64,000 nt of DNA, from the NCBI GenBank assembly GCA_000091205.1, contig AP006495.2; one strand, written 5' to 3'. Within the stretch, counting starts at the first letter, position 1; every line of letters starts with the position of its first letter. The notes under the pieces are model-generated. The model was given only the letters and a program-made list of their open reading frames with translations. It was not told the DNA's origin and ran no database searches. This document shows, piece after piece, positions 1,960 through 64,000 of this stretch. Source of the stretch: Cyanidioschyzon merolae (Eukaryota). The position numbers and the translations under genes were made by a program.

Positions 1960-2330
1960 GTGCAGACGCCTCCAAACCTTTTTAAGTGGCCCCTGCCATC
2001 GGCTTCAGCCTCTCCCCGTCTACTTTGACCCTCAGGGCGCTGCCTCAAGAAATTCTCTTGTGTCAGATCCTAGGGTCTCATCTTTAGCACCACACATCTC
2101 CTGATATTGATAGCAGCGTCAAAGTCTAGGTTCACCAACTCCATACTTTTCTTGCCGCTGGTTCAGCGCACCAGTGCCAGGAGTTGTCGAGCGCGCGCCC
2201 TCTGTGCGAACACCCGTATACCATCCGACCGTTTCGTCCGGAAGAAGTCCCACCGTCTGAGAAAAGAAACCGGTGTTCCTGTGCCTCAGACTGATTGCGA
2301 GGTTCCAGGAACGTTGTCGTTGCGATAACG
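1960..2330 (-). mobile_element. Solo 3'-terminal fragment of the TnpB/Fanzor-like repeat family. It is homologous to the 3' coding end plus downstream non-coding tail of the copies at 9.07-9.3 kb and 58.04-58.3 kb.
   Basis: Shared motifs gtgcagacgcctc (1961), gagGgcgctgcctca, and caccgcacatct...tattgatagc(a/g)gc...ggttcac(c/t)aa...ttcttgccg align with 9073-9300 and 58043-58270. No upstream ORF is present. Confidence 0.6.
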
Positions 2331-8939: not shown

Positions 8940-11050
8940 GCTCCCAGATCATACTCTGTTCGCGTATGTGTTCAAGCATGCACACACACAAAACGCCGTT
9001 CTAAAGTTGAGCGTCGCCGGCAGTGCACAGTCGTGGCGGTGAACACGCCCTAGACATAGCGTCTTCAACTGACGTGCAGACGCCTCGCAGCCGTTCTGGA
9101 CCGGCCATCTAGTACTGCCTTCAACTTTCTCTCATATAATTCCACCTTGAGAGGCTGCCCCAGTAAATGCGCTCTTGTAAACTCTTAAGGTCTTCTTTCC
9201 ATCACCGCACATCTTCTTATATTGATAGCGGCATTAAAGTTCGGTTCACTAATCCCATCCGTTTCTTGCCGTCGGTAGTTGTACTCACCAGCGCAAGTAG
9301 TCCTCGAACTTTCGCTCTCCTTTCCATTTGCTCTTCTGTCAACGCTCCGTACTTTGCTATATCCTCAGGGCTCCGCTGGCACTTTTCCATCTCGACCCTC
9401 TGAGGTGTGCCCCCCAACTCGTAAGGCGTATAGGACGTTCAGATCCCATCTATCGGTATCGTAACAAAACGCTTTGCACACTCCTTGTACGTTCTTGTCG
9501 TTGGAGCTGGCTTAGTCCCTTTTTTGGTCATCCAGCGACCTGCTCCGTATGCTACTACGAGCCTCTGAATCTCGTCCTCTTTGAGTGCGCTCAACTAATT
9601 GAAAATTTTCGCAAACGCGCGCTTTTTCCCACTGTACAAGTTCATACGCAGACGTGCCCACTGGGGCTTTGTATATTCTTTCTACAGCGCCTCCCAATGA
9701 GCAACGCGAACTTTCATGAATTTCAGAAAAGCTTGAAAGTCCGTTCCTCGGCTCGTCACCTCGCTCAAAGCTTCCACGTGCTCTTTCACTCCTGCATTCC
9801 ATCTCTCAATTTTCTTCCTTGCATTCATGATTCCCGATTCTCGGTAGTATCTCGCTCTCGAGAACCTCAACAGACGCATGTCTTTCTGACGTAATTTGCC
9901 GTCAGTACCATCTTCAGCACGCTTCGGTACAGCGATGATTATGATATTCGTGATTCCGGGGTCAGCGCTAACGATAAAGTCGTTCTCATGCACTTTCTGC
10001 GTCATAGGAACCGCCTTCTTCTTATCTTCATGCTCCGCTGAAGGCAATTTCGAAGATGAAACAGGACGATCTGCCTCCAACCGACGAGAATGAACACACT
10101 TGGGTACCCCATCGGTTTCGAACATCCACGCAAATACCTTTTGCTTGCTCACTCTCAGACGTTTGAAATCGAAGATATTCTTCCAGTGCGTCTCCCGGTT
10201 TTAACCGGTGAACTCCTCCCTGCTGACATTGAACTCAGGACTGATCTCCTTAATGATGCCATGAAGGACTCTGGAGTCGATAGTCACAGATGTGACTCAA
10301 TGTTGTACATTGCAACCGCTTTGAAGCGCTTCCCCATTAGGGCGGCCTTCCGTCTCTCCCAGTCTTCATTTTTTTCCTCACTCAGCCTCATGTCTGCTTT
10401 GCATTCGAGCTCTCGATCCAGGAATACGAAATACTGCAGGAGAAGCCGATAGTATCTTTCCTTATCTTTTTTCAACTCTGATTTCTTTTCTGCAGGATTC
10501 GCCAGCCCCAAGACTGCACGATGCTCTTGTATAGCTGCGCGGATGACGGAATCCTCATTTGTGCTCCTGCGTGACGCCTTCTTGTCGAAGAATTCGATCT
10601 CACCTTCATACTGTCGATTGTTCGTAATGGCATTGATAATCGTCCATATCCCTTTGCGAGAGAAGCCCCGATAGAGTGCAAAGACAGAGCGTATTATGGA
10701 GCGTTCGAGTTTCACGATCACGTGGTTCTTCAAGTTCGTCAGGTACATCTTCGCCCCGTCCAAATTTATTCTGAGACTAGAAGCGGGTGTGCTGTGTCCG
10801 GGCATAGCCCTGGTCGGGTTGGAATCCCAGTATATGGCTTCACGTTGCCGCAGGCAGTGCGTCTGTATGCACAGCTGGAGGCTCCCAGGTTGATTATGCG
10901 CTACGGCCCCGTGTTGAATGAACCACGGCTCGAAAAGACGCCCCCACTGGTATGGCAAAGCTTCTCTGTCTCCGTCCTGCATCCGCACCGGCGGTTTAGG
11001 CTCTATTGCGCATGCTCACTCCGGGCTCGGCGCACGATAGAACATATGAA
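8940..11050 (-). mobile_element. TnpB/Fanzor-like repeat family, copy C (diverged, frameshifted; element coding strand is minus)
   Basis: ORFs 10284..10988(-) and 9682..10152(-) are homologous to ORF1/ORF2 of the 58-60 kb copy. RuvC-I DFIVSADPGITNIIIIA is near 9962, the Arg-rich linker is RLLRFSRARYYRESGIMNARKKIERWNAG, and the RuvC-III-like KCQRSPEDIAKYGAL is near 9360. The 3' non-coding tail is 8940-9217. Confidence 0.6.
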
Positions 11051-11511
11051 ACGACCACTAGTCCCGAAAGAAAGTTTATGAAACGGAACTTGAAAGTAGG
11101 TGCATCGTGATGGACGCTTTTTCGTTTACCGTTACCCTTCCATCCCGAAATCCGGTATCGATGGTCCATGGAAACGTTTTCTCATCGGAAAAATCATCGG
11201 TGCCAAGTCCATTTGAAAAGTTTTGAATGGAGCCGCGGTTCCGCTGCATATCGAAGCGAAGGCCGCACGTGATCTGGAGGCGCTCATACTTTTCTCAACT
11301 TTTTCTTGTCGAGACAACGGACCAGAGAAGTGAAGGATCCACGTTTGTTCGTCCTTTGCTTCGCGGTCGTGGTTCTGAAAGGCACCTGTTGTTGCCTCGT
11401 TCCGAGTGCGCTGGGTAGGAGCCAAAGCTTGTGCACAGTTCGCTAGACTGAGGGAGCACGCTACTCGTTGTTCTCGGTTAAAAAGCGGATTGGATTCGGT
11501 TTCTAGGTGCA

Positions 11512-47388: not shown

Positions 47389-47619
47389 GCTTTCTCTATA
47401 TCCGCTTGGTTCTGGGAACACAAGTCGCTTAGCGTTTAGACACGTCGAGAAACTTGGAACACCAGTTGCATAGGCACTAGGTGCTGGTCTCACGCAGCGC
47501 GTCGTTTGCCAAGAGCGGGACGCCCTGGTGCAGAGGCCTCGCCTTGCACGCCAGTCCTGTTGGATATGGTAAGCGTGCGCACCAAGACGCTGCTCCGAAC
47601 CGTACGTAGGTAGACTGCA

Positions 47620-48786
47620 GTGATGTTCGCGCGAAGACACAGCCGTCGCTTGCGACGCTTCAGACGGCGAGCACTGTCGCGGAAAAAACACAGATACCGG
47701 TTGCGGGCACGAATCCTTTCCGGGTGCCAAGTCGTCGACAGGACGGCGTATGCGCAGGAGCTCTTCTATCGTGGCCTTCCAGGGAGTGCGCTGATGCACC
47801 CAGTTACCAGGTTCAGTTGCACAAGCGGCGACCGACACCGCACAGGTCAACAGTGCCGGCACGATGCGCGGTTCCCGCTCAAGCAGCGTCCGGAAAAGTC
47901 GCTGCGTCGCGAATATTGCGCCTTCGCCCTAGACATACGGCAGCAGAGAGCCCACCGGGAACCGCAGGCGGCACATCCCGCTGTGACTCGCGCTACGCGG
48001 CATGTCCATGGACAGAACTTGGTACAATGGGCTTGGTCACCTTCGAATCGGGACCGGGTTCTCACGTACATCACTGACGCTCGTATCGGTTTGCGTGGCA
48101 ACGACCTGCAGCGGTTGCAGCATCCGAACTGGCTTAACGATGAGGTCATCAACGCGTATTTGGGTCTCCTCAATCGAGAGTATCGCCAGCACGGCGTCTA
48201 TTGCTTTCATTCCTTTTTCTATACGCGTTTGACGAGTCCCAGCTACTGCTTTGCGTACGTTCGGCGCTGGACGACTCGAGCTCGCTTCACGATCCATCGA
48301 GACGCTTTACTGCTCATTCCAGTGAATATTGCTCAACGCCATTGGGTTCTGGTCGCCATCGACGCGAACCGGCGCGAGCTGCGCTGCTACGACTCCATGC
48401 ACAGCCAAGACGGATGGTGTGTGCTTCCGAACCTCCGCCATTGGCTGACTGACGAATGCATCGACAAGGGCGTCGAGGATCCTTGGCTGCTTTCCGATTC
48501 GTGGACGTTATCGCTTGCCCACGAGCATGAACGGATTCCTCGCCAGACGGACGGTGGCTCGTGTGGGGTCTTTTCTCTGCTCTTCGCCGAGGCACTGGCC
48601 AAGAACTGGAGCCCTGCGCGTGTTCCGTCGCCAGGCAAGCCGGCACCGCTGCCGTTGACGAGTCTTCGGTTCCAGTTTGCGCAACGAGACATCCCGGAGC
48701 TGCGCAAGCGCCTAGTGATGGCACTCCTTCGCCAGCAGAGCAGCCTGGATGCCCCTGAAGCCTCCGTGGATCGCATATCCCGATAG
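47620..48786 (+). CDS. Ulp1/SENP-family C48 cysteine peptidase (SUMO or NEDD8-specific protease). N-terminal boundary uncertain.
   Basis: LQRLQHPNWLNDEVINAYLGLL. Catalytic His context RHWVLVAID. Asp context YDSM. Catalytic Cys and oxyanion Q in QTDGGSCGVFSLLFAE. Confidence 0.7.
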   Translation: MMFARRHSRRLRRFRRRALSRKKHRYRLRARILSGCQVVDRTAYAQELFYRGLPGSALMHPVTRFSCTSGDRHRTGQQCRHDARFPLKQRPEKSLRREYCAFALDIRQQRAHREPQAAHPAVTRATRHVHGQNLVQWAWSPSNRDRVLTYITDARIGLRGNDLQRLQHPNWLNDEVINAYLGLLNREYRQHGVYCFHSFFYTRLTSPSYCFAYVRRWTTRARFTIHRDALLLIPVNIAQRHWVLVAIDANRRELRCYDSMHSQDGWCVLPNLRHWLTDECIDKGVEDPWLLSDSWTLSLAHEHERIPRQTDGGSCGVFSLLFAEALAKNWSPARVPSPGKPAPLPLTSLRFQFAQRDIPELRKRLVMALLRQQSSLDAPEASVDRISR

Positions 48787-49110
48787 AGGAGCGCGCCGTG
48801 CGTCTAGGACTGCACTGCGTCCCAGGGGATGTCAGCTTGGAGACGGTGACACAGCTCCAGGTCCAACCGAGAAGAAACGCGTCGACTACATGAAGTACGC
48901 GCACGAGCGGCATGCTCGCTTGCACGCGGGCGTTCGGCGTAAAACGTGACACAGCAATGCGCTCGTTTACGAGACTAGACCATGAAAGCGTGTGGTGTTT
49001 CCGCCTGACATGCTGATGAAGCAATGCGTTCATTTACGAGACTAGACCATCAAAGTGCGGTGCATCGTGCGGCACCTACCTGTTTCATCAGACCAGTGAA
49101 ACCGGGCTCA

Positions 49111-51456
49111 TCATCGTTCTGGTGACGTGTCACTGTTCGGTGCACTGCGGCTTTCTTTCGGGTTCTCCATAAAATTGCGAATTTGTGCAAAAGCGTCGAA
49201 CATGGACTGACGAACAGCGTCGGCGCCTTGCGATCCCTCCTTCGCAGGCAAAGATGCTTTTTCGCCCTGGGATTGGGCTGCTGCGGCTTCCGCTTGGGTG
49301 TCCATCTGTACCTGCGTTTCCTGGCCTATCTCATCGTCAGTGATATCCAGTTTCCAGTCCTGTTCGTATTCACGCAGTGCAGCAGCGATGCCTTCTCGCA
49401 TGCGCTGAAACAGTTCTTCGCGAGACGTCGCTGCCGATGCCGTCGCTGGATGCGTTCCTGTGGCATTTGCTGCGGGGCGTGATGCCTCACTCGTCGTACC
49501 GTTCTTTCCAGCAATGGAGATGTCATCGTATGCGTTCAGGCTGGCAGCTGATTTCGCGTTTTGGTACGCGTCAGGACTCGTACTTGGTGCAGGCGCTGGC
49601 GTAGAGCGTTTGCTAGAGCTGGCGTCTTCAGAGGTTCCATTTTGCGGTTTTGGAGACGTTCGCGGGACGCGCGTTTCCTCGAGCACCTGTTTGAGGCGTT
49701 CCTCGTCCAAAGCGTCCAGCACTGCCCACGGCCATTGGACGGCTGCTCCGGAGCTCTTGCCCGCTTTCATTGGGTCCGGTGGCGCAGGGATGCCTGAACC
49801 AGGCGCAACAGGCTCCAACGACCCGTCCTCTGCAATTTTCCATATTAAAACCTCCGATTCGTCCTCAGGTGATGAAGGCGCTGCGTCCGCTGCAAGCGTT
49901 CCTGGTCCCGCTTGAGCGGCTGGTGCCGGTGCGCTGCTTTCGTTCGGGTTGGCGCTCTTGTCACTGCCCAGTGAGACGCCAGCGACTGCATCCGGTGATC
50001 CTGGCGATGATGCTGTAGTTGGAGCAGGTGATTCGGCAGCACGTCCACCGATGCTTGCATCAGCGGGGTATGCCGCCCTCCTAGGCGAATGAGGCGGGCT
50101 CGTCGACCTCGCTTTCTCAGCCCCATCTGTGAAGCGCTCAAAACGACAAGCACGAAGGAGCTGTGTGTCGAGCGTCGGAGACGTTCCGAGTACTTGATCG
50201 GCAACGACTTGCGCAACGAGCGGTGCCAGCAAGATGCCATTACGCCAGTGTCCCAGTGCGTAGTACATGTTCGAGTATTCCATTGATGGACCCAGAATCG
50301 GTAGAAGATCAGGCGTCAGCGGGCGAAAACCGCTCCAGGTTCGATCGAGCGTCCAGTCGGCGAGCGCTGGACAGAGCTTCTCTAGACGCTGCAAGAGGCC
50401 ACTGATACCTCTGGCCGTACAACGGTTGTCGAAGCCGGCATCCTCAACCGTGCTTCCGATCACGATTTTTCCAGAGAGCCGCTTCGGTGCCATGTAGAGA
50501 TCGGCTCCGTACAGAACTCGCCTCACGAGTAAGTCCATAGCCGTGGCGGCTCCAGGGGCGCTGATGCTCAGCATCTGGCCTTTTTGGGGCTTTACCGGCA
50601 CCGGCACGAGCTGCCGGGCCCATGCCCCACTTGCCAATATGAAAGCATTTCCGTAGAGCAGGTTGCCCGACGCGAGGCGCACTGCCTCGATTCGCTGGGT
50701 CTTGCCATGTCTCGCTGCGACAAGGCACGAGGCCTCGTTGCCCTCCATGAGCCGTACACCAAGGTTTCCGCACGCCAGCGTGAGTGCTTCCATGAGCGCA
50801 ACGTTGTCTACTTGGCCGTCCTGCGGAAAAAGCCAGGCCCCTGCGAGTTGGGCGTCGCTGGTGAGCCCAGGTTCCAGCTGACGCGCTTCATCAGCGCTGA
50901 GAAAGTAGGCCTCGCCGGCGTCCGCCGGTGGCCTCCAGCCGTGCACCGCGTCACCTGGAAAAGCCGGAGCGAGGAGGCCACACGGATCGTAGCCAGTGCT
51001 TACACCACCGGCGGCCTGTTCCACCCGGCGCACGAACTGAGCGTAGCGCTCTCGTGCAGCGAGGCAGAGCTCAAGCAGTGGCCCAGGGGGCAAGCGCTCG
51101 CCCTGTGGGGCCAGCATCCCGCCAGCTGCCACCGCTGCAGACTCGCTGCGACGTCGTGAAACCACGATCACCTGGGGCGCCGCCGGACGCTGAGCCAGCT
51201 CTACAGCTGTAGATAGACCAGTGATGCCGCCCCCAATGATCACGATCGTTTCTCTGGGGTTTCCTCGGGGAACATGCTGCATGCGCAGCCTACTGACCGT
51301 TCGAGTACGAGGTCGCCGCCTCCAGCGAGCACTCCAAGCCGCAAGCGCCCTGTGTTCCTCACTGCAGCGCCCCTCGGTGCTACTTGGCACCCCAAGTGCA
51401 AATGATCTGTTCTCCCTATGTACATTGATGGGAATGCTTATGAACGCTGGGCTCAT
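49111..51456 (-). CDS. ThiO-like FAD-dependent glycine oxidase (DAO family) fused to a C-terminal Ser/Ala/Pro/Thr-rich disordered tail of about 350 aa
   Basis: IVIIGGGITGLSTAVELAQR is the FAD dinucleotide-binding motif. AAGGMLAP and SGFRPLTPDLLPILG are ThiO/glycine-oxidase signatures. The 3' half of the ORF (49111-50150 on the minus strand) is low-complexity. Confidence 0.6.
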   Translation of the reverse strand: MSPAFISIPINVHRENRSFALGVPSSTEGRCSEEHRALAAWSARWRRRPRTRTVSRLRMQHVPRGNPRETIVIIGGGITGLSTAVELAQRPAAPQVIVVSRRRSESAAVAAGGMLAPQGERLPPGPLLELCLAARERYAQFVRRVEQAAGGVSTGYDPCGLLAPAFPGDAVHGWRPPADAGEAYFLSADEARQLEPGLTSDAQLAGAWLFPQDGQVDNVALMEALTLACGNLGVRLMEGNEASCLVAARHGKTQRIEAVRLASGNLLYGNAFILASGAWARQLVPVPVKPQKGQMLSISAPGAATAMDLLVRRVLYGADLYMAPKRLSGKIVIGSTVEDAGFDNRCTARGISGLLQRLEKLCPALADWTLDRTWSGFRPLTPDLLPILGPSMEYSNMYYALGHWRNGILLAPLVAQVVADQVLGTSPTLDTQLLRACRFERFTDGAEKARSTSPPHSPRRAAYPADASIGGRAAESPAPTTASSPGSPDAVAGVSLGSDKSANPNESSAPAPAAQAGPGTLAADAAPSSPEDESEVLIWKIAEDGSLEPVAPGSGIPAPPDPMKAGKSSGAAVQWPWAVLDALDEERLKQVLEETRVPRTSPKPQNGTSEDASSSKRSTPAPAPSTSPDAYQNAKSAASLNAYDDISIAGKNGTTSEASRPAANATGTHPATASAATSREELFQRMREGIAAALREYEQDWKLDITDDEIGQETQVQMDTQAEAAAAQSQGEKASLPAKEGSQGADAVRQSMFDAFAQIRNFMENPKESRSAPNSDTSPER

Positions 51457-51459
51457 TCT

Positions 51460-51780
51460 TCTTCACAAAGGAACAACAACAACAACGACAACAACAAGAA
51501 TGAGCAGCACTGAACGAATCACTGCGTTCCGGCAGCGAGCCAGCGGTGCGTCGTTGCGTCAACGCGCCCATCGGCCTGCTTCGATGCCGCGGACGGGCCG
51601 GCTGTAGCGGGCGGCGTTATCCTATGTACCTTATCAGGTGTGCACGTACGGGGCGGGGCCCATCATCACTATCACTATCACTATCAACATCAACAACAAA
51701 AACATCATCAAGAACAAAATCAACGACAACAACATTAAGAACAAAAACAACAACAACATCATCAACAAGTACGGCGATCC
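51460..51780. repeat. Low-complexity AAC/ATC-rich tracts in the intergenic region
   Basis: caacaacaacaacgacaacaacaaga at 51470-51500. catcactatcactatcactatcaacatcaacaacaaaaacatcatcaagaacaaaatcaacgacaacaac... at 51659-51770. A (GA)n run occurs near 51885-51905. Confidence 0.8.
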
Positions 51781-53088
51781 TAGTGTTCGTATTCATACTG
51801 CACCAGTGCTCGACTGCGCGCAGTTGTAGCGGGATCGTTGTCCATGCTCGTGCGAACCATAAACAAAAGAGCATTCGTGTGCGTGCCAGAGAGAGAGAGA
51901 GATAGAGGAACATCCTGGAGAGCGTTCTTGCGGGTAATATCGTCTGGACGTTTGTTGGAAAGTGCAGGAAGAGCTCTGGGAGCAATTGATCCTGCATGGA
52001 CGGTGCGATCGTGAGCGGCTATGAACGTGCATCCCGGGCGGCGAATGCACTCTACATCCAGCGGTTCCGCGTGCTGGTTCCAGATGCACAGCCATGCCCT
52101 TCGATGCACACATGTTCATAGAGGCGTGGATCTGCCGTGTGAGTGCTCCGGTTCTAGCGGTGAATGCGGGCGATCGGGTCGATAGGTCACCAATCCCGTG
52201 TCAGGTGCTCATAGGTATGCGATTCCGGAGGCGTCCTGCAGCGCACGGCGGTGCAACTTCACCGACCGAGCCGCAGATGAACCGGCACCGTGTCCAGCGT
52301 CGCCTCCGCAACGCGTCCGGTATGGTGTCAAACGAGCGCCACGCGATTCACTGAGCCAGCGACTCCACGAAGCGGTTCGCCTCGGCGAGACTGCCTCCGT
52401 ACGACAGGTACGCCGTCCGTGAGCCGCTCTTCGGATGTAGGGTACGGTGACGCCTTCCAGTCGTCTGGCGGTGCATGCGTGCTGCCGTCGCCGCGGAGCT
52501 CATCGCGGGCACAATGATGAACTTGCGGACCTGCAGGCGCTGAAATTGCATCAGACACATTTACGTATGATATCCGATGCATGAATTGAACCGGAGACTC
52601 TATGGGAACGCAGATTTCACCAATGACCTGGAAAGAGGTCACAGCTTCGCTTCTCCGCGGTCCTTTCGTTGTCGTATCAGCGCGCGTGCGGCTGCATGAG
52701 CGACTTTTCTGGTCGACGCGGCGGCAGCCTACCGGATCGTGGCACACACCAGGGATCTGCGATGGCGTGCGCGGGTTATCGGAGTCACGGGGGCAGCAGC
52801 CGGAATCCCGCACGAAAAGCATTCGAGTGCGGAGGCATGCGTTTCTGAGGACCTCTAGAATACATGCGACAACAACTAGGCTTCTCTGTTGACACATTCG
52901 ATGTACTATGAGAGACAGGCCGTGCATAAACGCCGCTTCCCAGTGATGCTGCAGCAACCGGACACAGGTCAGAGGCGCCGGGGGCCGGCCATCGATGATT
53001 CGTTGCGAAGGCTGAGCGTTTTGTTGTGCGATCGTCGGGCAGCGCTGGCATAGACAGTGTAAACTGGTAGACTTATCTTTCGGTTGGG

Positions 53089-54744
53089 ATGCTGTCCAAT
53101 TCATCGTTTTGTCAAAGAGCTTCAGTCACACGTCTAGTTCAAAGTGTGCAGCTGCTTGCTCCGAACGCAAGAACCTGGCTCGGGCGGGCGTCGTACGACC
53201 AGCCCCTGTACGGAGCGGCGAGCGGCGGTGCGCTGGTGCGAGGCCAGCGCGTACCAGCAGTTAGCTCCAGCGCGCAGCGACACAGGTACAGCACTGTAGC
53301 TGGCGGATCGCTCGGTGAATTTGACGTAGTTGTCATCGGTGGTGGACCTGGTGGCTACGTTGCTGCGATCAAGGCTGCGCAACTTGGCCTGAAAACCGCC
53401 TGTGTAGAAAAACGCGGGAGTCTTGGCGGTACCTGCTTGAACGTCGGTTGCATCCCGTCCAAGGCGTTACTACACTCGTCTCACCTCTATGAGGAGGCGA
53501 AACATGCTTTCCCAACCCATGGAATTCGCATCGAGGGCAAAGTCACGTTAGAACTTCCTGCGATGATGAAGCAGAAGATGAACTCTGTTCGGGGCCTCAC
53601 GAAAGGCATTGAGGCGCTATTCAAAAAGAATCAGGTGACGTATGTGAAAGGCACGGGAAAGCTAGCGAGCGCGACGCAGATAAAGGTGCGCCCTCCAGAT
53701 AGCGACGAGTTTGCCCAGGAGATACATGCCAAGAACATTATTATTGCAACTGGCTCGGAACCTGTAGCCCTGCCCATGCTTCCCTTCGATGAGAAACGGG
53801 TCGTATCGTCGACAGGAGCGCTCTCTCTTCCAACGATACCCCAGCGGATGGCGGTCATTGGCGGCGGCTATATTGGCCTCGAAATGGGCTCCGTCTGGCG
53901 ACGTCTCGGGGCCGAAGTAACCGTCATAGAGTTCACCGATCGGATCGTGCCGGCCATGGATCACGAAATCGGTGATCGTTTTCTGCAAATCCTGAAAAAG
54001 CAGGGACTCAAGTTCAAGCTGGGAACCAAAGTCACGGGAGCCAAGATTCCCGCGGAGCCATCACCCGTCACGTTGGAGCTGGAGTCCGCCAAAGACAGCA
54101 GCAAGAAAGAGACGTTCGATGCGGACGTGGTGCTGGTAGCAACCGGTCGCCGCCCCTACACCGCGGAACTCGGCCTCGAGGCACTCGGTATCGAACTAGA
54201 CGATCGGGGGCGGATCCCCATCGATGATGCATTTCGGACGCGTGTTCCCAACATCTACGCTATTGGCGACGTGGTGCGCGGGGCGATGCTCGCGCACAAA
54301 GCCGAAGATGAGGGCATTGCCTGCGCTGAGACCATCGCCGGACACAAGGCACACCTGAATTACGATTGCATCCCAGGTGTTGTGTACACGCATCCAGAAG
54401 TCGCTTCTGTTGGCAAGACCGAGGAGGAACTGAAAGCAGCGGGCATTGCCTACAACAAGGGTACGTTCCCGTTCATGGCGAACAGTCGGGCCCGTACCAA
54501 CGACGCAGGCGGCGATTTTACCCAGGGCCTCGTGAAGGTGCTCGCGGAGAAGCAGACCGACCGGATCCTAGGACTTCACATCATTGGACCTGGTGCCGGT
54601 GAGATGATCGCTGAAGGTGTGCTGGCGATGGAGTACGGAGCATCCAGCGAAGATATCGCTCGAACCTGTCACGCGCACCCGACGCTAAGCGAGGCGCTTC
54701 GCGAAGCCGCCATGGCAACCTTTGATCGACCTATCCATTTCTGA
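53089..54744 (+). CDS. DLD: Dihydrolipoamide dehydrogenase (E3 component of 2-oxoacid dehydrogenase complexes), mitochondrial, with N-terminal presequence
   Basis: FAD/NAD binding VVVIGGGPGGYVAAIKAAQLG. Redox-active disulfide GGTCLNVGCIPSK. Second Rossmann VIGGGYIGLEMGSV. C-terminal HAHPTLSEA with active-site His. Confidence 0.9.
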   Translation: MLSNSSFCQRASVTRLVQSVQLLAPNARTWLGRASYDQPLYGAASGGALVRGQRVPAVSSSAQRHRYSTVAGGSLGEFDVVVIGGGPGGYVAAIKAAQLGLKTACVEKRGSLGGTCLNVGCIPSKALLHSSHLYEEAKHAFPTHGIRIEGKVTLELPAMMKQKMNSVRGLTKGIEALFKKNQVTYVKGTGKLASATQIKVRPPDSDEFAQEIHAKNIIIATGSEPVALPMLPFDEKRVVSSTGALSLPTIPQRMAVIGGGYIGLEMGSVWRRLGAEVTVIEFTDRIVPAMDHEIGDRFLQILKKQGLKFKLGTKVTGAKIPAEPSPVTLELESAKDSSKKETFDADVVLVATGRRPYTAELGLEALGIELDDRGRIPIDDAFRTRVPNIYAIGDVVRGAMLAHKAEDEGIACAETIAGHKAHLNYDCIPGVVYTHPEVASVGKTEEELKAAGIAYNKGTFPFMANSRARTNDAGGDFTQGLVKVLAEKQTDRILGLHIIGPGAGEMIAEGVLAMEYGASSEDIARTCHAHPTLSEALREAAMATFDRPIHF

Positions 54745-57138
54745 GCGACGCTTCGGGTGAAGTGAGTACCAGAGCGGCTGCGCTGGGTGACCCTGGGCTG
54801 CGGCCTTCGTTGCGCACAGCCTCACCGACGCATGCATCAATGGCAGGTTCTTCACATACGAAGAAAGATAGGTGGCTCAAGAATAAACTTTGCCGCACTT
54901 GGAGTGCCTTTCGAAGGGCTTTTGCGCTACAGGGCGGCGGCTGGCGTACCGAGCTCCGGATGCTAAGGGGCGCACGCGCTCGTCCAGCCTGTCGTGCATC
55001 TTGCGCTGCTGCGTGTTCCGGAACCGAGTCCTCCAGTGCAACGCAGACTCGCTCCTCGAAAGCGAGCGCCGGTGCCTCCTCAAGATTGTATTCGATATGA
55101 CCGTACGTTTCACATGAAGACTCATTATAGCATAGTAGCTGCTTGTGTATTCTTGGAGGAGGCCTTGTCAGGGAGCGACGGGTAGTCTCTGCAAGCTCAC
55201 AAGAGAGGTTCGAAGGCTTTGCGAAAAGCGTTGGCCGAGCTTGTTCCCGGATTATCGTTTCCAGGGTGGAGCTCGAAACAAGCTCCTGTGATGATGGCGA
55301 CCGACGGAATGTCCACGCGATTGTTCTTTACGTCAATTTTCCCTGAGTCAAACAAGATGACTTGTTTGCACCCTTCTAGGTAGATGTAGGAAAAGACCTC
55401 ATGGTGGACGTCGACCCCAGGTCCATGAACATGATCGCCGGCGCCGTATCTCTAAATCGAGAGAACGCAGCCAAGGACCTCGAAGGGAACGCAGATGACG
55501 GTGCTCAGCTTTATCAGGGCTCGTTCGTATTCGGAATCGGGCATGAATCGCATCGGGAGGCATACCATCAAGTGGAATGGCTGCATTGGGACCCAGATCA
55601 ACGCTTTGATCACCGTATCGAGGAGACAGAGGTGCTTTGGACGCTTCATGCAGCGCGTACGCATGTGTCCGAATCGCTCAAGCGGCGGAGCCTGTACAGG
55701 AGTACATCGGCCCAAGTCAGGATCATCAAAGGTTTCCGCTTGATGGATGCAAAAACCGTGCATTCGTCAACTCGCTCAATGAGTTGGCTAACGAATGTCG
55801 AACGCGTTGTTTGATGCTCGCCTGTGGCGCTGGACATGCTGCCGCGTGCCACGGCTGTGCTCTTGGTGCTCCAACGAGAGGATACAGCGGGTGCAGCAAT
55901 TGATTCTTTATGAATCTCATGGATATGTTCTGGGCTGTGTAATCGCATCACGAGCACGGATGCGCACTGAAAAGGTAGAGAAAACGAAAGTGAACAAATC
56001 GGATGTGCGAGATGCTGTACGGTGAGCCGAACAACCTGCAGATGACGAGGGCATCCAGTGCGAGAGGCGTGCTGTGGTGTCATGCCGCCAGCGATGCTGT
56101 GCGCAAGCACTTGCTGCCCCAAGGCTTCAACAACTCGATCGACAATAGGCATTGTCTCGTGCATCAGTAGCGTCCAATAGTTCGGTGTCCAGCGAGGCCT
56201 CGAAAGAGTCGTTTGGTACTCTCTCTCTGGGCACCGTGCTGAACTGCGGCTGACTTGGCATGAAAAATCAGTGTTTACGACTGAGGCCATGCGACACTTG
56301 CTTGCCAGGATCAACGCAGTGACATGGCACGTTTCAGGTATGTGGAGAGGCTGGAGCGCCTTGTTCACAAAGTGGGAACGAGATTTTTAGGCTATTGGCG
56401 AACGATCATGGGGCTCCCTTATTCGATACGTCTGCGTACAGCGAGTTGCGCACGACACGCGGAAAGTGGTTTGCAGATGCGACATTCGTACGTTTTCTTG
56501 AACTGACAGGGTTTTGGTAGGACGGTAAGCACCTGGCCACCTCGTAGCGGACCGGTCAGTCGTCTGAAGCTGATCTTCCCGCTCCATACGGCGCCTGCGG
56601 GAAATTAAAGGCAAATCGGTATCCCTCCCATCAGTCTCAGTCAGTAGACGCACCTCAGGTAGAAGCGATGATCATTTGCGGGCACGGACGCCTCAGCGCA
56701 TCGGACCCTAGCGAGTGCGCTCCGGACGGCGTATTGAATGGTGCGCGTCGTGGCGCTGGGCCTCCTAGCTTCGATGCAAGCTCATGGTGCCGAGCGTCGT
56801 GAATGCACAACGAATATCCAACAGGAGCGCCTTGGCCAGCGGATGTTTTACCAGTTTGTGCCCAATGACGCTGCGCATGCCGTCAGCGTCGAGCTGGCGA
56901 CGAATGCCCCCCTCAGCGATAGGCCTAATCAACCTCAGCTTCTGATGCAGGCTTCCCCGGTAAGCGCACAGTCACGAGCGCCGATAGCGTCTGCGAATGC
57001 CCGCCTATGCCTGATGGACGCTGTTCCATTCGAATACGTGTTGCGGCCAGAGACAACCTCCAAAGCAGAGCCACGCTTCTGTATAAATACCCTGCTTTGC
57101 GTGCATTTGAACTCGAAAATGTTTCGGAGCACGCTTTC

Positions 57139-58077
57139 CTAGGTCCCCGGGATTGTTTCCCTTTTCTCGTCGTTCCAGCGCTGCTCGGCGCGGGCAGCAA
57201 ACGCGCGAAGCACACCAGGAACTTCTTTCATGATCTTGCGCTCAACCAGCGCTATCGGGAAGAGGATCATCGGAACCACGTCCAGCGCATACTCCAAACG
57301 AGTCTCTGTCTCGCTGCGCGGCACGATTCTATACACCCCTTTCCAAGATGCAAAGTCCCTGCTCTCTCGTTTCGAGAACAGGAGCTCGCCCTGCTCTGGT
57401 AGCATCTCAACTTCCATAACGAGTCGCGATTGCAGTCTCAGACGACGGCTGACCCAGGCGACTTGCTCGAGCAGTCGTGACTCCGTGTCAAAGCGCGACG
57501 AGAGCATATGCGGTACAAACTCGATCATTTCATCGAATGCCGTCAGCACCGTCCAGACGTGTGCCTTAGGTGCGAAAACGTTTAGCGATCCAGTGATCAA
57601 TCGCCGACGCGAGTCCAGCGAACGCAGTTCGACTCGCAGCTCCTCAGGCGGATCTGTCCGAAGCTCCCGCACAAGCGTACCGACTTGTTCGGCATCAGCG
57701 CTTGCTTTTGCCGACAGTGCTGTTCCATGAGCGCGCGGGCTGCGCGGGCTGCGCGGACTCGGAGGCGAGCTCCGCAACCAGCTGCGCGGCGAAAGAACAA
57801 AACCCATGCTCTGGCGGGTATAGCAAGGACTGGCGTCTATCGGTGGTACCCCCTGTTTACTCACGAGCATATTGCCGGGAACTGGTGTTGAACAGAAACC
57901 GACTGCTCGGTCACTGCAAACGTCGGCACGCCGTCCCACCACCATCAACACGAACAGCAAACGCTTTTCAAAAGAAAAACGTTGCTGCCAGTGGTACAGT
58001 AGTGGCGAGTGTCCCGCCCTAGACAAGACGACGCCAACTGATGTGCAGACGCCTCGGAGGATTTCTCGGCGGGCCAT
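57139..58077 (-). CDS. SRPBCC/START-like (polyketide cyclase/dehydrase-type) domain protein. The N-terminal part of the ORF overlaps TE-derived sequence, so the true start is probably an internal Met.
   Basis: Weak pattern match only, with alternating beta-strand/helix character around VWTVLTAFDEMIEFVPHML...WKGVYRIVP...LEYALDVVP. No catalytic motif identified. Confidence 0.3.
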   Translation of the reverse strand: MARREILRGVCTSVGVVLSRAGHSPLLYHWQQRFSFEKRLLFVLMVVGRRADVCSDRAVGFCSTPVPGNMLVSKQGVPPIDASPCYTRQSMGFVLSPRSWLRSSPPSPRSPRSPRAHGTALSAKASADAEQVGTLVRELRTDPPEELRVELRSLDSRRRLITGSLNVFAPKAHVWTVLTAFDEMIEFVPHMLSSRFDTESRLLEQVAWVSRRLRLQSRLVMEVEMLPEQGELLFSKRESRDFASWKGVYRIVPRSETETRLEYALDVVPMILFPIALVERKIMKEVPGVLRAFAARAEQRWNDEKRETIPGT

Positions 58078-58209
58078 GTACGAATGCTTTCAATCTTGTC
58101 TCATATAGTTCCACATTGAGAGGGTGTCCCACAAAGTTCTCTCCTGTCCACGATGGGGGCTTCTTTCCATCACCGCACATTTCCTTCCACTGCATGCGGC
58201 GTTCAAGTC

Positions 58210-59244
58210 TCAATGCACAAACGCTATGCGTTTCTCGCCATTCGTAGTTGTACTTTCTAATGCGAGCAATCCTCGAACTTTCGCCCTTCTTTCCATTTGC
58301 TCTTGCGTCAGCGCTCCGTACGTTTGTATATTACCAGGGCTCCGCTGGCACTTTTCTTTCTCGACGCTCTGAAGTGTACACCCCAGCTCGTGGCGTGTAT
58401 ACGATGTTCGGAACTTATCTACAGGTATCGTGACGAAACAGTGTGCGCACTCCTTGTACGTTCTTGTCGTCGGGGCTGGCGTCGTTCCTTTTTGGGTCAT
58501 CCAGCGCCCTGCCCAATAAGCTACTATGAGCCTCTGACTTTCATTCTCCTTCAGGGCGCTCAGCCGATTGAAAAAGTTCGCGAACGCGCGCCGCTTCCCA
58601 CAGTGTAGATTCATTCGCAATCGAGCCCACCGGGGCTTTGGAAATTCTTTTCGCAGCGCCTCCCAATGAGCAACGCGAACTTGCATGAATTTCATAAAAG
58701 CTTGAAAGTCCGCTCATCGGATCGTCAGTGCGCTCAAAGCTGCCAGGTGATCCTTCATTCCTGCGTTCCATGTCTCAATTTTCTTCCTCGCATTCATTAT
58801 ACCGGATTCTCGAGAATATCTAGTTCTTGAGAACCTCAACAGACGCAAGTCGCTCTCACGTAAGTTGCCGTCAATGCCATCTACCGCACGCTTCGGTGCT
58901 GCGATGGTCATGATATTCGTATTCCCAGGGTCCGTGCCAACGACGAAGTCGTTATCCTGCACTTTCTATGTCGCAGGATCCGCCACCTTCTCATCTTCAT
59001 GCTTCGCCGCGTCAACGACGAGGCCCTTGTCATGCACCTCCTGTGTCGCGGGATCCGCCTCCTTCTCATCTTCATGCTTCACCGCCTCAACGACGAGGCC
59101 CTTCTCATGCACCTCCTGCGTCGCAGGATCCGCCTCTTTGATTTCTTCATCCTTCGTGACGGGCGCGGCCGAGGGCGGAACTGGACGATTTATCTTCAAC
59201 CGCCGATAGTGTACACACAAAGCTACTCCATCGGTTTCGATCAT
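58210..59244 (-). pseudogene. TnpB/Fanzor-like RuvC nuclease ORF (OMEGA-type), disrupted by in-frame TAG at 58966-58968 and a stop at 58714-58716
   Basis: Ruv[19 protein letters not shown] (D near 58931). Arg-rich linker RLLRFSRTRYSRESGIMNARKKIETWNAG. RuvC-II-like VRVAHWEALRKEF (E near 58661). Zinc-ribbon TTRTYKECAHC (near 58445). Degenerate RuvC-III region KCQRSPGNIQTYGAL. Spacing is about 90 aa from D to E and about 70 aa from E to CxxC, as in ISDra2 TnpB. Confidence 0.55.
58970..59165. repeat. 75-bp (25-aa) intragenic tandem repeat, about 2.6 copies, inside ORF2 of copy A (single copy in copy C)
   Basis: gtcgcaggatccgcc... recurs at 58970, 59045 and 59120, encoding ADPATQEVH(E/D)KGLVV(E/D)A(V/A)KHEDEKE repeats. 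Confidence 0.85.
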
Positions 59245-61479
59245 CCCCGTGGATACATTTCGCTTTCTGACTTTGAGACTTTTGAAATCGAAGATATTCT
59301 TTCAGTGCGTCTCATGGTTTTCGCCAGTGAAGTCCTCTCTGCTAACATTGAACTCGGGACTGATCTCCCTCATGATGCCGTAAAGGACGCCGGAATCGAT
59401 ACTCACAAAATGTGACTTGATGTTGCGCATTGGAACGACGTTGAAGCGCTTACCCATTAGGATAGACTTCCATCTCTCTCACTCTTCATTTCCACCTTGC
59501 GTTCGAGCTCTCGGTCCAGAAACACGAAATATCGCAGGACAAGGCGATAGGATCTTTTCTTATCTTTTTTCAACTGTGATATCTTTTCTGCTGGATTCAC
59601 CAGCGCCAGCGCCGCACGGTGCTCTTGTATAACCGCACGGATGACAAAGACCTCATTCGTGCTCTGGTTTGACGCCTTCTCGTCGACGAATTCGATCTCA
59701 TGTTCATGCTTGCGATCGTTCCTTATGCCGTTGAGAATCGCCCGTATCCCTTTGCGAGACATGCCCTGGTAAAGTGCAAACACGGCGCGTATCATGAAAC
59801 GTTCGACGTTCATTGTCAAATGATTCTTCAGGTTCGTGACGCACTTCATCGCCCCGTATGCGTAGATATCCCAGTCACCCTTGTATCGAGTACCGTTGAT
59901 GCTGTAAAGGGTATTTCTCGTGGAGGGCGTGATTCCGCTCATTTTCCCTCCGCGCTTCCCGCTGTACCATGCATCAGGTATCGAAAAAACGTCTTGTCGA
60001 AGGATTCGCCCGGAATCTCGACCGTTTCCATGTGCGCCACATCGCGATACATCTCCCTCGCCAAATGCATCCGTCCTGACGACGCCTTGAGAATACTCTT
60101 GGAGTACGAGTCGACACGGTTCCTAATGGCCTCTCGCAACTTTTCCCTGTACGGATCCTTGACATGTCCAACAAGACAGGCTTTCACCGCCATCTCGGAG
60201 TACAGTTGTCTTTCTTGCCGCCTTCGACGTAGGGCCTCCCTCTTTTGCTTCATTTTTTCTTCTTGTTCTTCTGAACTCGGCACTGTTTCTTGTTTTTTTT
60301 TCTGGCAGCCAGCGACACTGAGCCTCAGGATCGTCGACTTGCTTTTTCATAACTTTCCTTTTTTAGGTTTTGTAAAAAGAACGCTTTTGAACGCTTCTGT
60401 TATAATCCGCAAAAAATCAATCGAACATTTTTACTTGAGGTTTGAAACACAAATGAAACCGAAAAACTGTACTTGGCTATGAACTCAACGAGAATACAAC
60501 TTTTACATCAGAGCTACACGCTAGAAATCACGATCACGTTTCCCGTCAACGGAGGCATACGCGTCGTGTCAGTTTACTGCCTGATCTCCCAGTTGCGCTC
60601 ACTGAGCGCGATGCGTGCACCTCGCCAGACGCCTCACCGATCGATGAAGGACACGTGTCCGACGCCGCATTGGCATATGCGTGTTCGCATCGCGTTGCAG
60701 CGGAAATAAAGTATCGTAGATCGGAAATTCACGCAGAGTAGTCTCTCGCTATAGGCTATGTCGCTGGTGCCGACGCTGCTACCCATCGCAGTACCGCCTT
60801 GACAGACATGTAGATGTTGGGGCCTTGCAAGAAACCCCTCGACGCTTCTATCAAAAGCGTAGCCATCGTAGTATCCTACGATCGTGCGGGTGAGGTATGC
60901 ATCACTCTACTCAATAGGAGTTTCGTTAGTTTTATTGATCGTAAACAAACAAGGCATAGTAGTGTTCCCGAACACGGATATGCGTTTAATCCCTGTGCTT
61001 GTTATGCAGGCTGCACGGACGCTGGGATGAGAAACTGGTTTGAGTTGTGCTTCTATCCTGCGTCATGGGCAGGTACTGATGGCAGGTCAAGTCATTGCCA
61101 TGCTGCCGTCGTTGTCCAAGTTATGATATCCGCTACTCTCTCGGATCCGGTGATCTCGGCAGAGGAATAGCGCACATGTAGCGTGCAGATGTATCACGGC
61201 GTTTGACTGACGCATCTCGCCTGGCACGTTCGAAGCATCCGCTAAAAGCGCATACTGTATTCTGGTCTATTCTCACCGTTTACTGGCAAGAGCCTAAAAT
61301 GTAGATAGCGGTGCAATCGTCAAACCGTGAACTTTTCCGTACCCCCGCCGCTCCATATGCTCCCGGATGCTCGGTGGCTGCCTGCTGGTTTCCCACTCTC
61401 ACCAGCAAAACTGCAGAACGGAAGGATTTTCTTTCTATCTTTTACCGTTCAATGACTGGAAACCGTTTCACGACCATGT

Positions 61480-61600
61480 AGGGTAAATTCATATCCACTC
61501 ACAGACGCCTCCCGGTCTTTTTGGACTGGCCAACAACTACTGTTTCCAACTTGTCCTTGGACAAGTTGGCAGTAGGAGGCTGTCCCACAAAGTCGGATCG
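61480..61600 (-). mobile_element. Short isolated fragment of the repeat-family 3' tail containing a perfect 11-bp palindromic hairpin
   Basis: cagacgcctc...(about 75 nt)...gaggctgtcccacaaagt mirrors 58046...58128 (gtgcagacgcctc...gagggtgtcccacaaagt). Includes ccaacttgtcc ttggacaagttgg. Confidence 0.5.
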
Positions 61601-62959
61601 CGTCAGCTCCGCCGGTCGCGCCTCCATCGTCATTCATCCGTTGATACTGATCGTGTTTTGTCTAAAACGCTTGTGATAGAGCTGAGGTCAAGAGGCGATC
61701 AATTTTGACCGACGCTATCACACGATCGGTACCAGAAGCTAAGGGCTGCAGCCGGCACCAGGTGCTCTTGTGACGGCATGCTGGCCGTGAAGAGTGCGTG
61801 ACGAAGCCGCATGGCACGCGAGGGTGTCCTAGTACATAAAACGAGGACGTGCCCGAGACGTTCAGATTCAGGGTAATGACGAGTCGCCGCTACGGTATTC
61901 TGGGAAAATAATCCGAGTGAGCTTTTGTTGCTCGAACATCGAGCACTATCACGAGTGTGGGTGCGTTTCACTGCACGGTTTGTAACGATCATAGAATCCA
62001 CCATCATCCAAAAGCGACGAAATGTCATACGCGCACCGGCCTCGTAAATCCAGGTCAGGACGTGCCCAGCAGCACGGAAACAAATTACGTGAACTGCTGT
62101 GCTTGCACCGAACGAAAGGAAGCATGCGTTTCCTCGACCGAAGATAGAGGCTTCCGAATTCATTCAGATACTGCCGATGTTTCGCCCGAACCCAGACCAC
62201 CATCTGCAATGTGCCCAAGACCATACACAGGATGCCTACGATTGTTTGCATCATCAAGTTAAGTCCTACTCACGCCAGTACCTCAGATATATAGTTCGGA
62301 CACGACACATGCTCGAAATGGAAGCCGTATGGGGTTTGCCGCAGGCGCCAACGGCACACCAGGTTGCCCGGCTCACCCGTGCCATTGCACACCACGCTTA
62401 TCCAAAACTCGGCTGCAACTGTAGCAGCGGCATCGCCAGCGTGTATGCATCGGCGCCATAGGATTTTTCATTGAGAAAACGTTTCCATTGACCATGGATC
62501 CCAGATTGCCGGATGGGCGCAGACATACGGGAAATCACTCTTTATGTTGTACCCTTATTTCTAGTTCCATTCGCGATTGTTCCTCTCGGATATACTGGTC
62601 ATTTTGCAGGTTATATCGTGCGCCTAGTGCGTGCCGTGCCTAATCCGCCTTGGCGCCTGAACCGCTGGAGCAGATATTTTTGGTAAAGACTGAACTGCTT
62701 TTCCGTACCGCTGAGGGTGTCGGATCAAGGAACGCTTCGTCTGATGTGGAGTAGGAGCACGTGATCATTCCGGGAGCCTGAAAACTGGGAGACATACGAT
62801 CTTTCTGCGACAGCGCGAAGCGATATACTAGGAGTGATCAACGACCAGGGTGATGCCCCGTCGCAGCATACCCGCTCCTAGTCCCAGAATAAAGTGCATT
62901 GCGAACGAGTTGCTCAGATTTAACCAAAGTACCTGTCACTGGGGCGGACATGAAGCGCA

Positions 62960-64000
62960 AGCTTGGGAACCTGTCTTCTTAAATATATCAAGGATCCGTA
63001 CAGGGAAAAGTTGCGAGAGGCCATTAGGAACCGTGTTTACTCGTACTCCAAGAGTATTCTCAAGGCGTCGTCAGGACTGATGCATTTGGCGAGGGAGATG
63101 TACCGCGACGTGGTGCACATGGAAACGGTCGAGATTCCTGGCGAGTTCGTCGACAAGACGTTTTTTCGATACCTGAAGCATGGTAGAGCGGGAAGCGCGG
63201 AGGGAAAATTGAGCGGGATCACGCCCTCCACGAAAAATATCCCTTTTACAGCTTCAAAGGTACTCGATACAAGGGTGACTGGGATATTCGCAGCTACGGG
63301 GCGATGAAGTGCGTCACGAACCTGAAGAATCATTTGACAATGAACGTCGAACGTTTCATGATACGCGCCGTGTTTGCACTTTACCAGGGCATGTCTCGCA
63401 AAGGGATACGGGCGATTCTCAACGGCATAAGGAACGATCGCAAGCATGAACATGAGATCGAATTCGTCGACGAGAAGGCGTCAAACCAGAGCACGAATGA
63501 GGTCTTTGTCATCCGTGCGGTTATACAAGAGCACCGTGCGGCGCTGGCGCTGGTGAATCCAGCAGAAAAGATATCACAGTTGAAAAAAGATAAGGAAAGA
63601 TCCTATCGCCTTGTCCTGCGCTATTTTCTGTTTCTGGACCGAGAGCTCGAACGCAAGGTGGAAATGAAGAGTGAGAGAGATGGAAGTCTATCCTAATGGG
63701 TAAGCGCTTCAACGTCGTTCCAATGCGCAACATCAAGTCACATTTTGTGAGTATCGATTCCGGCGTCCTTTACGGCATCATGAGGGAGATCAGTCCCGAG
63801 TTCAATGTTAGCAGAGAGGACTTCACTGGCGAAAACCATGAGACGCACTGAAAGAATATCTTCGATTTCAAAAGTCTCAAAGTCAGAAAGCGAAATGTAT
63901 CCACGGGGATGATCGAAACCGATGGAGTAGCTTTGTGTGTACACTATCGGCGGTTGAAGATAAATCGTCCAGTTCCGCCCTCGGCCGCGCCCGTCACGAA
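62960..64000 (+). mobile_element. TnpB/Fanzor-like repeat family, copy B, inverted relative to copy A. It is 5'-truncated near 62985 and cut by the window end inside ORF2.
   Basis: ORFs 62963..63307(+) and 63304..63696(+) match ORF1 of copy A at about 93% nucleotide identity, with a different frameshift (+1 t at ccctttTacag). 63870-64000 encodes [30 protein letters not shown] as in copy A. Confidence 0.65.

Follow-up and report, generated by a model that had tools for sequence, protein, structure and literature searches.

A stretch of 64,000 nucleotides of the Cyanidioschyzon merolae genome (contig AP006495.2 of assembly GCA_000091205.1; hereafter the window) contains a repeated, protein-coding sequence, and the question it raises is what this repeat encodes, whether it is already known and whether any copy could still act. 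The first-pass annotation, made from the letters alone, described decayed copies of a family encoding a TnpB/Fanzor-type RuvC nuclease, preceded by a separate upstream reading frame ("ORF1"). The core of this proposal holds. The family is real: three long copies (A and C on the minus strand, B on the plus strand) and two short fragments of its 3' part make it a multi-copy mobile element. The nuclease is supported by a profile match at E=1.4e-20, by Foldseek and by 83-86% identity to the known element CMe-1A, and the copies found here are dead. We are nearly certain that they derive from CMe-1A, the C. merolae transposable element that encodes Fanzor1, and have become pseudogenes.

CMe-1A (Fanzor1 "CMe-1") was described by Bao and Jurka (Mobile DNA 2013; PMC3627910) as a family of some 150 copies, with identities of about 80% to their consensus, that encodes a 734-aa Fanzor1, lacks inverted repeats, has its 5' part in common with TE-N2_CMe and includes some intact copies. 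The identity given above was obtained by aligning the published consensus (3169 nt) to A, B and C; it amounts to 83-84% in the core of A, 83% in that of B and 86% in that of C, and to 76-77% in the heads of B and C. All three copies thus show approximately 80% or more nucleotide identity to the consensus along the element. By inspection, the consensus protein rebuilt here agrees with the 734-aa protein of that paper. Both the consensus DNA and the protein of this very family have been public since 2013, and the biochemistry and structures of Fanzors have been available since 2023-2024. Because the family was published in 2013, our finding is an ordinary one, and the novelty implied by the first reading does not stand. 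The window is nuclear DNA of C. merolae 10D, and four of its proteins match entries of that strain exactly. The window copies come from the same organism and belong to the same family as the published element. They differ from it in that a different 5' head stands in copy A where the consensus has nt 1-670 and that B and C are internal-deletion derivatives; in addition, the 3' end mapped here is two bases longer (...GGCGTT).

Copy A occupies positions 57960-61297 of the minus strand. Its core (57960..60612, consensus nt 671-3169) comprises a leader of about 260 nt, the Fanzor1 frame and the 3' tail; the 3' end was set by alignment of 59 copies and the core start by alignment of 39. The head of copy A (60613..61297, minus) has no match in consensus nt 1-670, and it is common to other loci, being shared at 77-81% with L035, L057, L069, L004, L026, L005 and L072. 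TE-N2_CMe was considered as the source of this head and rejected, since the published consensus places the TE-N2_CMe head in B and C. In copy C (8992..11187, minus), consensus nt 1-420 are joined to 1399-3145, whereas copy B (62472..64000, plus), which is cut by the window end, joins its TE-N2_CMe-like head (nt 4-494) to nt 1075-2125. Both short fragments derive from the 3' coding part and lie on the minus strand, one at 2046..2202 (nt 2840-3000) and the other at 61496..61651 (nt ~2959-3083), the latter about 200 nt upstream of the copy A head and in the same orientation. The window also holds an older Fanzor1-like relic at 54989-56197.

The homology to Fanzor1 could be reached through relatives only: searches with ORF fragments and with the stitched proteins of A and C gave no match in Pfam or among PDB sequences. 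A profile of 32 close relatives gave no match either, and only one of distant relatives succeeded. This profile, built from 40 full-length relatives, matches the Fanzor1 proteins of Parasitella (PpFz1, E=1.4e-20), Spizellomyces (SpuFz1, 1.7e-9) and Guillardia (GtFz1, 0.0027), and it also matches the translations of A, B and C. The window proteins reached none of the Pfam TnpB models. The best Pfam match among the relatives was a sub-threshold one to Cas12f1-like_TNB (E=0.0023, one relative). A match to an unrelated family of transposable-element proteins, which had been named as a possible refutation, did not appear, as no unrelated transposase family was matched.

The structural comparison, also suggested beforehand, was made with P0001, the best-preserved relative, which comes from a metagenome and is 66% identical to copy A, rather than with a broken window copy. 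Its AlphaFold model (pLDDT 79.9, pTM 0.77) contains a disordered linker, with pLDDT below 50 for residues 373-470. In Foldseek the model superposes over full length on the Fanzor1 proteins of the PDB, with E of 6e-17 to 1e-13 and about 760 aligned columns; SpuFz gives E=6e-17 and a target TM of 0.71-0.73, PpFz and GtFz E=1e-13 to 1e-16. As judged from this predicted model, the family possesses the full-length Fanzor1 fold, with a REC/WED half and a RuvC half.

As the family consensus shows, an intact element has four parts: a 5' head, a leader (about 260 nt), a single frame and a hairpin-ended tail of about 60 nt. The frame is intron-less and some 735-780 aa long. In the protein, a basic N-terminus is followed by a helical REC/WED half, which corresponds to "ORF1", by a linker made of 25-aa repeats and disordered, and by the RuvC nuclease. 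In copy A the conceptual frame runs on the minus strand from ATG (60350) to TAG (58021-58019), that is 58019..60350. The first-pass annotation divided it into two ORFs, which invites a reading as an IS200/IS605- or IS607-type element with an upstream transposase (ORF1) and TnpB (ORF2). Copy A indeed seems to speak for it, as its upstream 275 aa and its RuvC part lie in different frames with stops between them, and ORF1 has no Pfam match. However, the frame passes unbroken through "ORF1" and "ORF2" in copy C, in a consensus of 14 sequences and in the 734-aa protein of Bao and Jurka, so that ORF1 forms the nuclease's N-terminal half. The ORF1 region aligns to the N-terminal part of Parasitella Fanzor1 (profile positions 148-457) and lies within the full-length structural match to SpuFz, whereas TnpB is only a weak structural match, and the family has an invariant Gly at the site of the canonical RuvC-II Glu. 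The two-gene reading has practically no probability left and is already refuted for the CMe-1A family. No transposase family was matched, and no separate Y1 HUH or serine-recombinase gene stands beside the nuclease.

The peptide strings quoted in the first-pass annotation are all present in the sequence; of its five motif assignments, RuvC-I was right, and those of RuvC-II, the zinc ribbon and RuvC-III were wrong. The D-P-G of RuvC-I is invariant in 40 relatives; it reads GTDPGNTN in A (within the motif at 58915..58950, minus, with the catalytic Asp codon 58932-58930 kept) and SADPGITN in C (motif at 9981-9955). In P0001 numbering, the invariant positions in these relatives are D484, G623, E656, R724, N727, A729 and N731, and D725 is found in 39 of them. 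VRVAHWEAL had been taken for RuvC-II, but the family-invariant Glu sits in VDEFRTS: the canonical site is occupied by the invariant G623 (AYG), and E656 (DEFRT) follows 33 residues later. At the family level, an inert canonical residue is thus combined with a conserved Glu downstream, the rearrangement of RuvC-II described in PMC10530073. As to RuvC-III, the proposed KCQRSPEDI gives way to the true motif FVNRDFNAAINIR. The RuvC nuclease of the family thus carries an Asp in DPG, the rearranged Glu in VDEFRTS and an Asp in NRDFNAA.

TTRTYKECAHC, proposed as the start of a zinc ribbon, corresponds to KECARRF in the consensus, and its second Cys arose by a mutation that only A carries. In the 40 relatives, the segment from E656 to D725 holds no conserved Cys pairs; a single Cys occurs at position 708 in 28 of them, where the C. 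merolae family has Leu. The C-terminal CxxC...CxxC zinc ribbon typical of TnpB and solved Fanzor1 is therefore missing from the C. merolae clade. Upstream of RuvC-I, in the linker that the model shows as disordered, copy A carries three tandem repeats of 75 nt, or 25 aa (58932..59156, minus; repeat family D6). Their number varies among copies, and column identity drops there to 0.32-0.5.

Could any window copy still work? The lesion list of the first-pass annotation named existing damage, including the stops TAG (58966-58968) and TGA (58714-58716) and frameshifts near the places indicated, but it was incomplete for both A and C. Within its aligned frame, copy A has four frameshifts (59961, 59911, 59491, 58165) and five stops (59481-59479, 59304-59302, 58968-58966, 58716-58714, 58212-58210), and a further 1-nt deletion lies just after the ATG. 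Copy C has four frameshifts, five stops and a 150-nt in-frame deletion. The catalytic Glu of RuvC-II is replaced by Lys in A (58416-58414, within IPVDKFRTSY at 58399..58428, minus; VDKFRTS for VDEFRTS) and by Gly in C (IDGI*, 9462-9442, minus). RuvC-III, NRDFNAAINIR in the consensus, has become FVH*DLNAACSG in A (58186..58224, minus), where a TGA replaces the Arg codon (58212-58210) and puts a stop ahead of the motif; in C it is frameshifted at about 9241. Moreover, about 980 nt of the element are missing from C and about 580 nt from B. Because of these frameshifts, stops and substitutions of the catalytic Glu, the window copies are incapable of RNA-guided cutting.

One might still imagine that some copy functions through introns, editing, recoding, separate subunits or RNA genes. 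The 3' tail of copy A with its terminal hairpin is well kept, the family was under purifying selection while it spread, and a nearly intact relative is present in related strains. Nevertheless, A and C bear four frameshifts and five stops each, at unrelated positions and without a splice-like pattern, both have lost the invariant Glu and have RuvC-III broken, and the deletions in C and B remove large parts of the element. We regard such residual function as extremely improbable, and the window copies remain for us dead CMe-1A elements. Their number should also be read with caution, as the three long copies exist but their independence was overstated. Over 59153-60180, copies A and B agree at 96.7%, and four lesions of A are found in B as well; B must therefore have arisen, by duplication or gene conversion, from A when A was already broken.

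Outside the window, 71-72 related loci were found, picked by peptide patterns and represented by short metagenome contigs. The expectation that intact members exist elsewhere is weakly borne out by them: while Bao and Jurka report some intact copies, only one of the 72 loci examined here is nearly intact (it appears twice, as L001 and L002), and even this one has a frameshift in its N-terminal part and a stop that comes 30 codons too soon. Ka/Ks equals 0.39 in the frame, compared with 0.93 and 1.15 in shifted frames; the Fanzor1 frame was under purifying selection during the family's spread. Contigs of related strains that were checked for an empty insertion site are 99% identical to the window and contain the same copies.

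By homology with Fanzor1 enzymes that have been solved and tested, the element's 3' end would be transcribed into an omega-RNA with a guide extending into flanking DNA; the protein would bind this RNA and cut matching DNA beside a short adjacent motif. The 3' part of such an omega-RNA scaffold would be expected in the non-coding 3' tail of copy A (57960..58018, minus). The tail is conserved and ends in the hairpin AACGTTTTTC-TTTT-GAAAAGCGTT, a terminal hairpin that is kept in two sequence variants. RNAalifold gave no structure for 42 3' ends, four hand-drawn helices in the tail showed no more covariation than a shuffled control, the conservation of the 3' end was not higher than that of coding DNA, and an Rfam search of the tail gave no match. 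The combination of a sharp hairpin 3' end with interchangeable 5' heads was observed as well. A Helitron was also considered, as the core starts with TC after A and a hairpin stands at the 3' end; it was rejected on the 3' end, which is GGCGTT rather than CTRR, and on the first flanking base, which varies.

How did the family spread? Instead of being a classical DNA-transposon passenger, CMe-1A might have multiplied by 3'-anchored replication, rolling-circle-like or RNA-mediated, served by Fanzor and its RNA. Such a process would agree with the sharp 3' end and its hairpin in two variants, with the joining of four or more unrelated 5' heads to a single core start, and with the 5' truncation at varied points of 12 of the 42 copies that have a 3' end. 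Tail-to-head adjacencies 40-50 nt apart (L032 among them), A-poor 3' flanks that are often simple repeats, and the lack of terminal inverted repeats, none being seen here or by Bao and Jurka (PMC3627910), point the same way. Yet the locus sample was chosen by peptide patterns from short metagenome contigs, and the internal-deletion derivatives (B, C, L054) keep head and tail, a pattern equally compatible with a DNA element that has two ends. We therefore consider 3'-anchored spread a rather unlikely mode. Slightly less likely still is the joint reading, in which the CMe-1A core is a mobile unit with 3'-anchored replicative spread, its repaired protein and 3' RNA are active without a zinc ribbon, and the relic at 54989-56197 belongs to a second, much older Fanzor1 lineage. 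If it were true, the core would pick up different 5' heads and often insert immediately after the tail of a previous element, an RNA-guided nuclease without zinc ribbon would come from a hot-acid alga, and the older lineage would mean repeated colonisation of a very small genome.

Taken together, the near-certain assignment to CMe-1A has little weight as a discovery, the family being public since 2013. A reading of bare sequence nevertheless recognised the TnpB/Fanzor nuclease correctly, and our analysis corrects its gene anatomy and catalytic motifs and finds these particular copies dead. The features of the ends bear on a question left by the 2013 paper, namely how the element moves without inverted repeats.

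Among known systems, the closest counterparts are the solved Fanzor1 proteins SpuFz of Spizellomyces punctatus (8gkh, 9ceu), PpFz of Parasitella parasitica (9cf0) and GtFz of Guillardia theta (9cer). The C. merolae protein has the same full-length fold, the DPG of RuvC-I, the RD.NA of RuvC-III and the same rearranged RuvC-II Glu in (D/I)DE(F/Y)(R/K)TS, although identity in the structural alignment is only 12-15%. Unlike them, its clade has the 25-aa-repeat linker before RuvC-I, and it carries THHELGC and RGLLALV where SpuFz has CPRC and GCTNPNC. Membership in Fanzor2 was rejected, as the match to the Mimivirus protein (9b0l; E=0.026 over 277 columns) is far weaker than those to Fanzor1. With TnpB (ISDra2, 8h1j) and Cas12f the similarity is one of the RuvC core (Foldseek probability 1.0, about 270 columns), and the match to 8h1j is weak (E=0.024, 272 columns). 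Compared with TnpB, the C. merolae protein is about twice as long, has Gly in place of the canonical RuvC-II Glu and is accompanied by no TnpA. The two systems would nonetheless be expected to share their basic logic, in which an RNA from the right end of the transposon guides the nuclease.

The repeat that the first-pass annotation had placed at 57940-60420 lies on the minus strand. A repeat finder and a BLASTN comparison of this region with the window recovered three long copies; two short pieces of the 3' part lie at 2046-2202 and 61496-61651, and all peptide strings quoted for the repeat were located in the sequence. Copy A occupies about 57960-60600 on the minus strand. Copy B, inverted relative to A, begins at 62970, extends to the end of the window and shares 96.7% identity with A 59153-60180. 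Copy C lies at 8991-10759 (76-79% identity). This family is already known. Bao and Jurka (2013, PMC3627910) gave CMe-1A as the single Fanzor1 family of C. merolae, with about 150 copies whose identity to a consensus of 3169 nt is about 80% each. This consensus is without inverted repeats, encodes a protein (CMe-1) of 734 aa and has as its 5' 635 nt the element TE-N2_CMe. When the published consensus was aligned to the window, copy A (60586-57962) corresponded to consensus nt 671-3169 (83-84% identical), copy B to nt 4-494 and 1075-2125, copy C to nt 1-420 and 1399-3145 (core 86% identical), and the two short fragments to nt 2840-3000 and 2959-3083. The consensus protein rebuilt here agrees, by inspection, with published CMe-1. 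A solo fragment at 38969-39230 (+) is 68% identical to consensus nt 4-264, the TE-N2_CMe head.

The reading of this repeat as coding for a TnpB/Fanzor-type nuclease is right and the observation behind it largely real; corrections concern the anatomy and three of five motifs. Of the proposed HMM and structure checks, direct searches of the stitched pseudogene protein against Pfam and PDB sequences gave no match, and AlphaFold with Foldseek, applied to a relative and not to a window copy, succeeded. All 32 proteins returned by a homologue search come from JGI metagenomes, and P0001 is the best of them (752 aa, 66% identical, 92% of the query covered). Exhaustive searching with P0001 yielded 1232 relatives (E<=1e-3), most of which measure 600-700 aa and show 30-42% identity. 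A profile of 40 relatives, which also matches the window's own translations, finds the solved Fanzor1 proteins of Parasitella parasitica (E=1.4e-20), Spizellomyces punctatus (1.7e-9) and Guillardia theta (0.0027). The AlphaFold model of P0001, built from the relatives' alignment (pLDDT 79.9, pTM 0.77), matches SpuFz, PpFz and GtFz in the PDB across about 760 columns (E=6e-17 to 1e-13; target TM 0.71-0.73 for SpuFz); Cas12 and TnpB rank far below (E>=0.006).

Two separate ORFs had been described, but three-frame translation shows the "ORF1" of copy C passing straight into "ORF2", and a 14-copy consensus is open from end to end. The profile alignment to Parasitella Fanzor1 extends over the "ORF1" region too. 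In copy A the two parts are divided by a 22-nt deletion and stops; its conceptual frame starts with ATG at 60350 (MKKQVDDP...) and ends with TAG at 58021-58019. Differences among copies show that this frame was under selection in the past (Ka/Ks 0.39 vs 0.93 and 1.15 in shifted frames). Directly upstream of RuvC-I there are 75-nt (25-aa) tandem repeats (58932-59156; P0001 residues 373-470), one in C, three in A and four in the related locus L001, which occupy a linker predicted as disordered in the P0001 model.

The copies in the window are dead; the first-pass annotation had taken A and B for likely inactive relics. Copy A has frameshifts at 59961, 59911, 59491 and 58165, another 1-nt deletion right behind the ATG, stops at 59481-59479, 59304-59302, 58968-58966, 58716-58714 and 58212-58210, and Lys in place of the catalytic Glu (58416-58414). 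Copy C, which has lost 150 nt in frame, carries four frameshifts and five stops; Gly stands in place of the catalytic Glu, and a frameshift disrupts the RuvC-III motif. Copy B has four of A's lesions, namely the codon-108 insertion, the deletion of 22 nt and two stops, at codons 276 and 335. A (59153-60180) and B (62970-64000) form an inverted pair with 96.7% identity and four disabling lesions in common, but with unlike 5' parts; this indicates, in place of two separate insertions, a segmental duplication or gene conversion that produced B after A had decayed. Intact members elsewhere in the genome had been considered possible. Of 72 related loci, in strains that share about 99% identity with 10D, only L001 (same copy as L002) keeps a long frame and is nearly intact, its N-terminus being shifted and a TAA coming 30 codons early. 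JGI metagenome contigs L073-L078, from several samples and compared with window 44002-63242, are ~99% identical to 10D across stretches of up to 17 kb; they contain the same element copies.

The common core of the copies begins near consensus nt 650-670; across the related loci, this one core start is preceded by at least four 5' heads that are unrelated to each other. The head of copy A (60613-61297, ~690 nt) differs from, and is missing in, the published consensus; it occurs also in L035, L057, L069, L004, L026, L005 and L072. Truncation at the 5' side affects 12 of the 42 copies that have a 3' end. Several tails are followed by the head of another element in the same orientation 40-50 nt later (~200 nt in the window), at window 61496-61651, L032 1805-1852 and in L035, L004 and L057. 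The sequence beyond the 3' end is poor in A and in many cases a simple repeat, and neither inverted repeats nor target duplications were seen in the copies. Together these observations suggest, short of proof, that the element may have spread by a 3'-anchored replicative route. Another repeat of ~1.27 kb, containing a 272-aa stop-free reading frame, adjoins the 5' end of the core in either orientation (L001 8401-9667; L013, L019, L022, L030).

Going by the Fanzor1 enzymes that have been tested, the nuclease of an intact element would be made together with an RNA transcribed from the element's 3' end. The guide of that RNA would run on into adjoining DNA and would target a double-strand cut. 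The copies have a sharp 3' end (...GAAAGGCGTT; 57960 in A, 8992 in C). Its terminal hairpin of 9-10 bp (57960-57995) comes in two sequence variants that differ in pairing register, and reaches z<-2 against shuffles in 40% of 45 related 3' ends. Since these ends gave no covariation in the hairpin or helices, no conservation beyond that of coding DNA and no Rfam match, the 3'-end RNA is something we infer from the tested enzymes.

A further Fanzor1-like relic at 54989-56197 (+) is much more decayed (31% aa identity to the CMe-1 consensus; tblastn with the relative P0034 E=9e-19, family HMM E=6.7e-13), with RuvC-I VDVDPRSMNMI and RuvC-III PQGFNNSIDNRHC. It has a weak DNA relative at L039 8450-9169; for C. 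merolae the 2013 paper (PMC3627910) gives a single Fanzor1 family. The window genes are intron-free and eukaryotic (cullin, NEDD8-E1-like ThiF protein, UBX protein, DNA polymerase eta), and four proteins are identical to C. merolae 10D entries BAM81111, BAM81116, BAM81125 and BAM81126. The gene downstream of copy A, whose equivalent in contig L073 belongs to the Polyketide_cyc family, has its longest ORF at 57139-58077 (-), beginning within the 3' end of A; as this exact protein is not on record, annotation probably places the start further downstream. Tandem arrays at 21638-22737 (80 nt, at least 11 units), 37398-37740 (111 nt x 3) and 43137-43439 (101 nt x 3) are unrelated to the Fanzor element.

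Invariant catalytic positions were read from the 40-sequence alignment in P0001 numbering. RuvC-I is D484-P-G486, in agreement with the first-pass assignment. VRVAHWEAL, TTRTYKECAHC and KCQRSPEDI had been taken for RuvC-II, the start of a zinc ribbon and RuvC-III, and all three are wrong. The alignment shows a rearranged Fanzor RuvC site. The canonical RuvC-II site is an invariant, inert residue, G623 in VVAYG; 33 residues later comes invariant E656 in VDEFRT. RuvC-III is NRD(F/L)NAAxNI, with R724, N727, A729 and N731 invariant and D725 in 39 of 40 relatives. From E656 to D725 the alignment is devoid of CxxC pairs, whereas SpuFz and PpFz have a CxxC...CxxC zinc ribbon. All of the clade lacks this ribbon (1232 relatives, for the most part environmental proteins; alignment A4, positions 656-725). 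A rearranged RuvC site has been described as a feature of Fanzors (PMC10530073), and the P0001 clade has the same rearrangement, with inert G623 and downstream E656.
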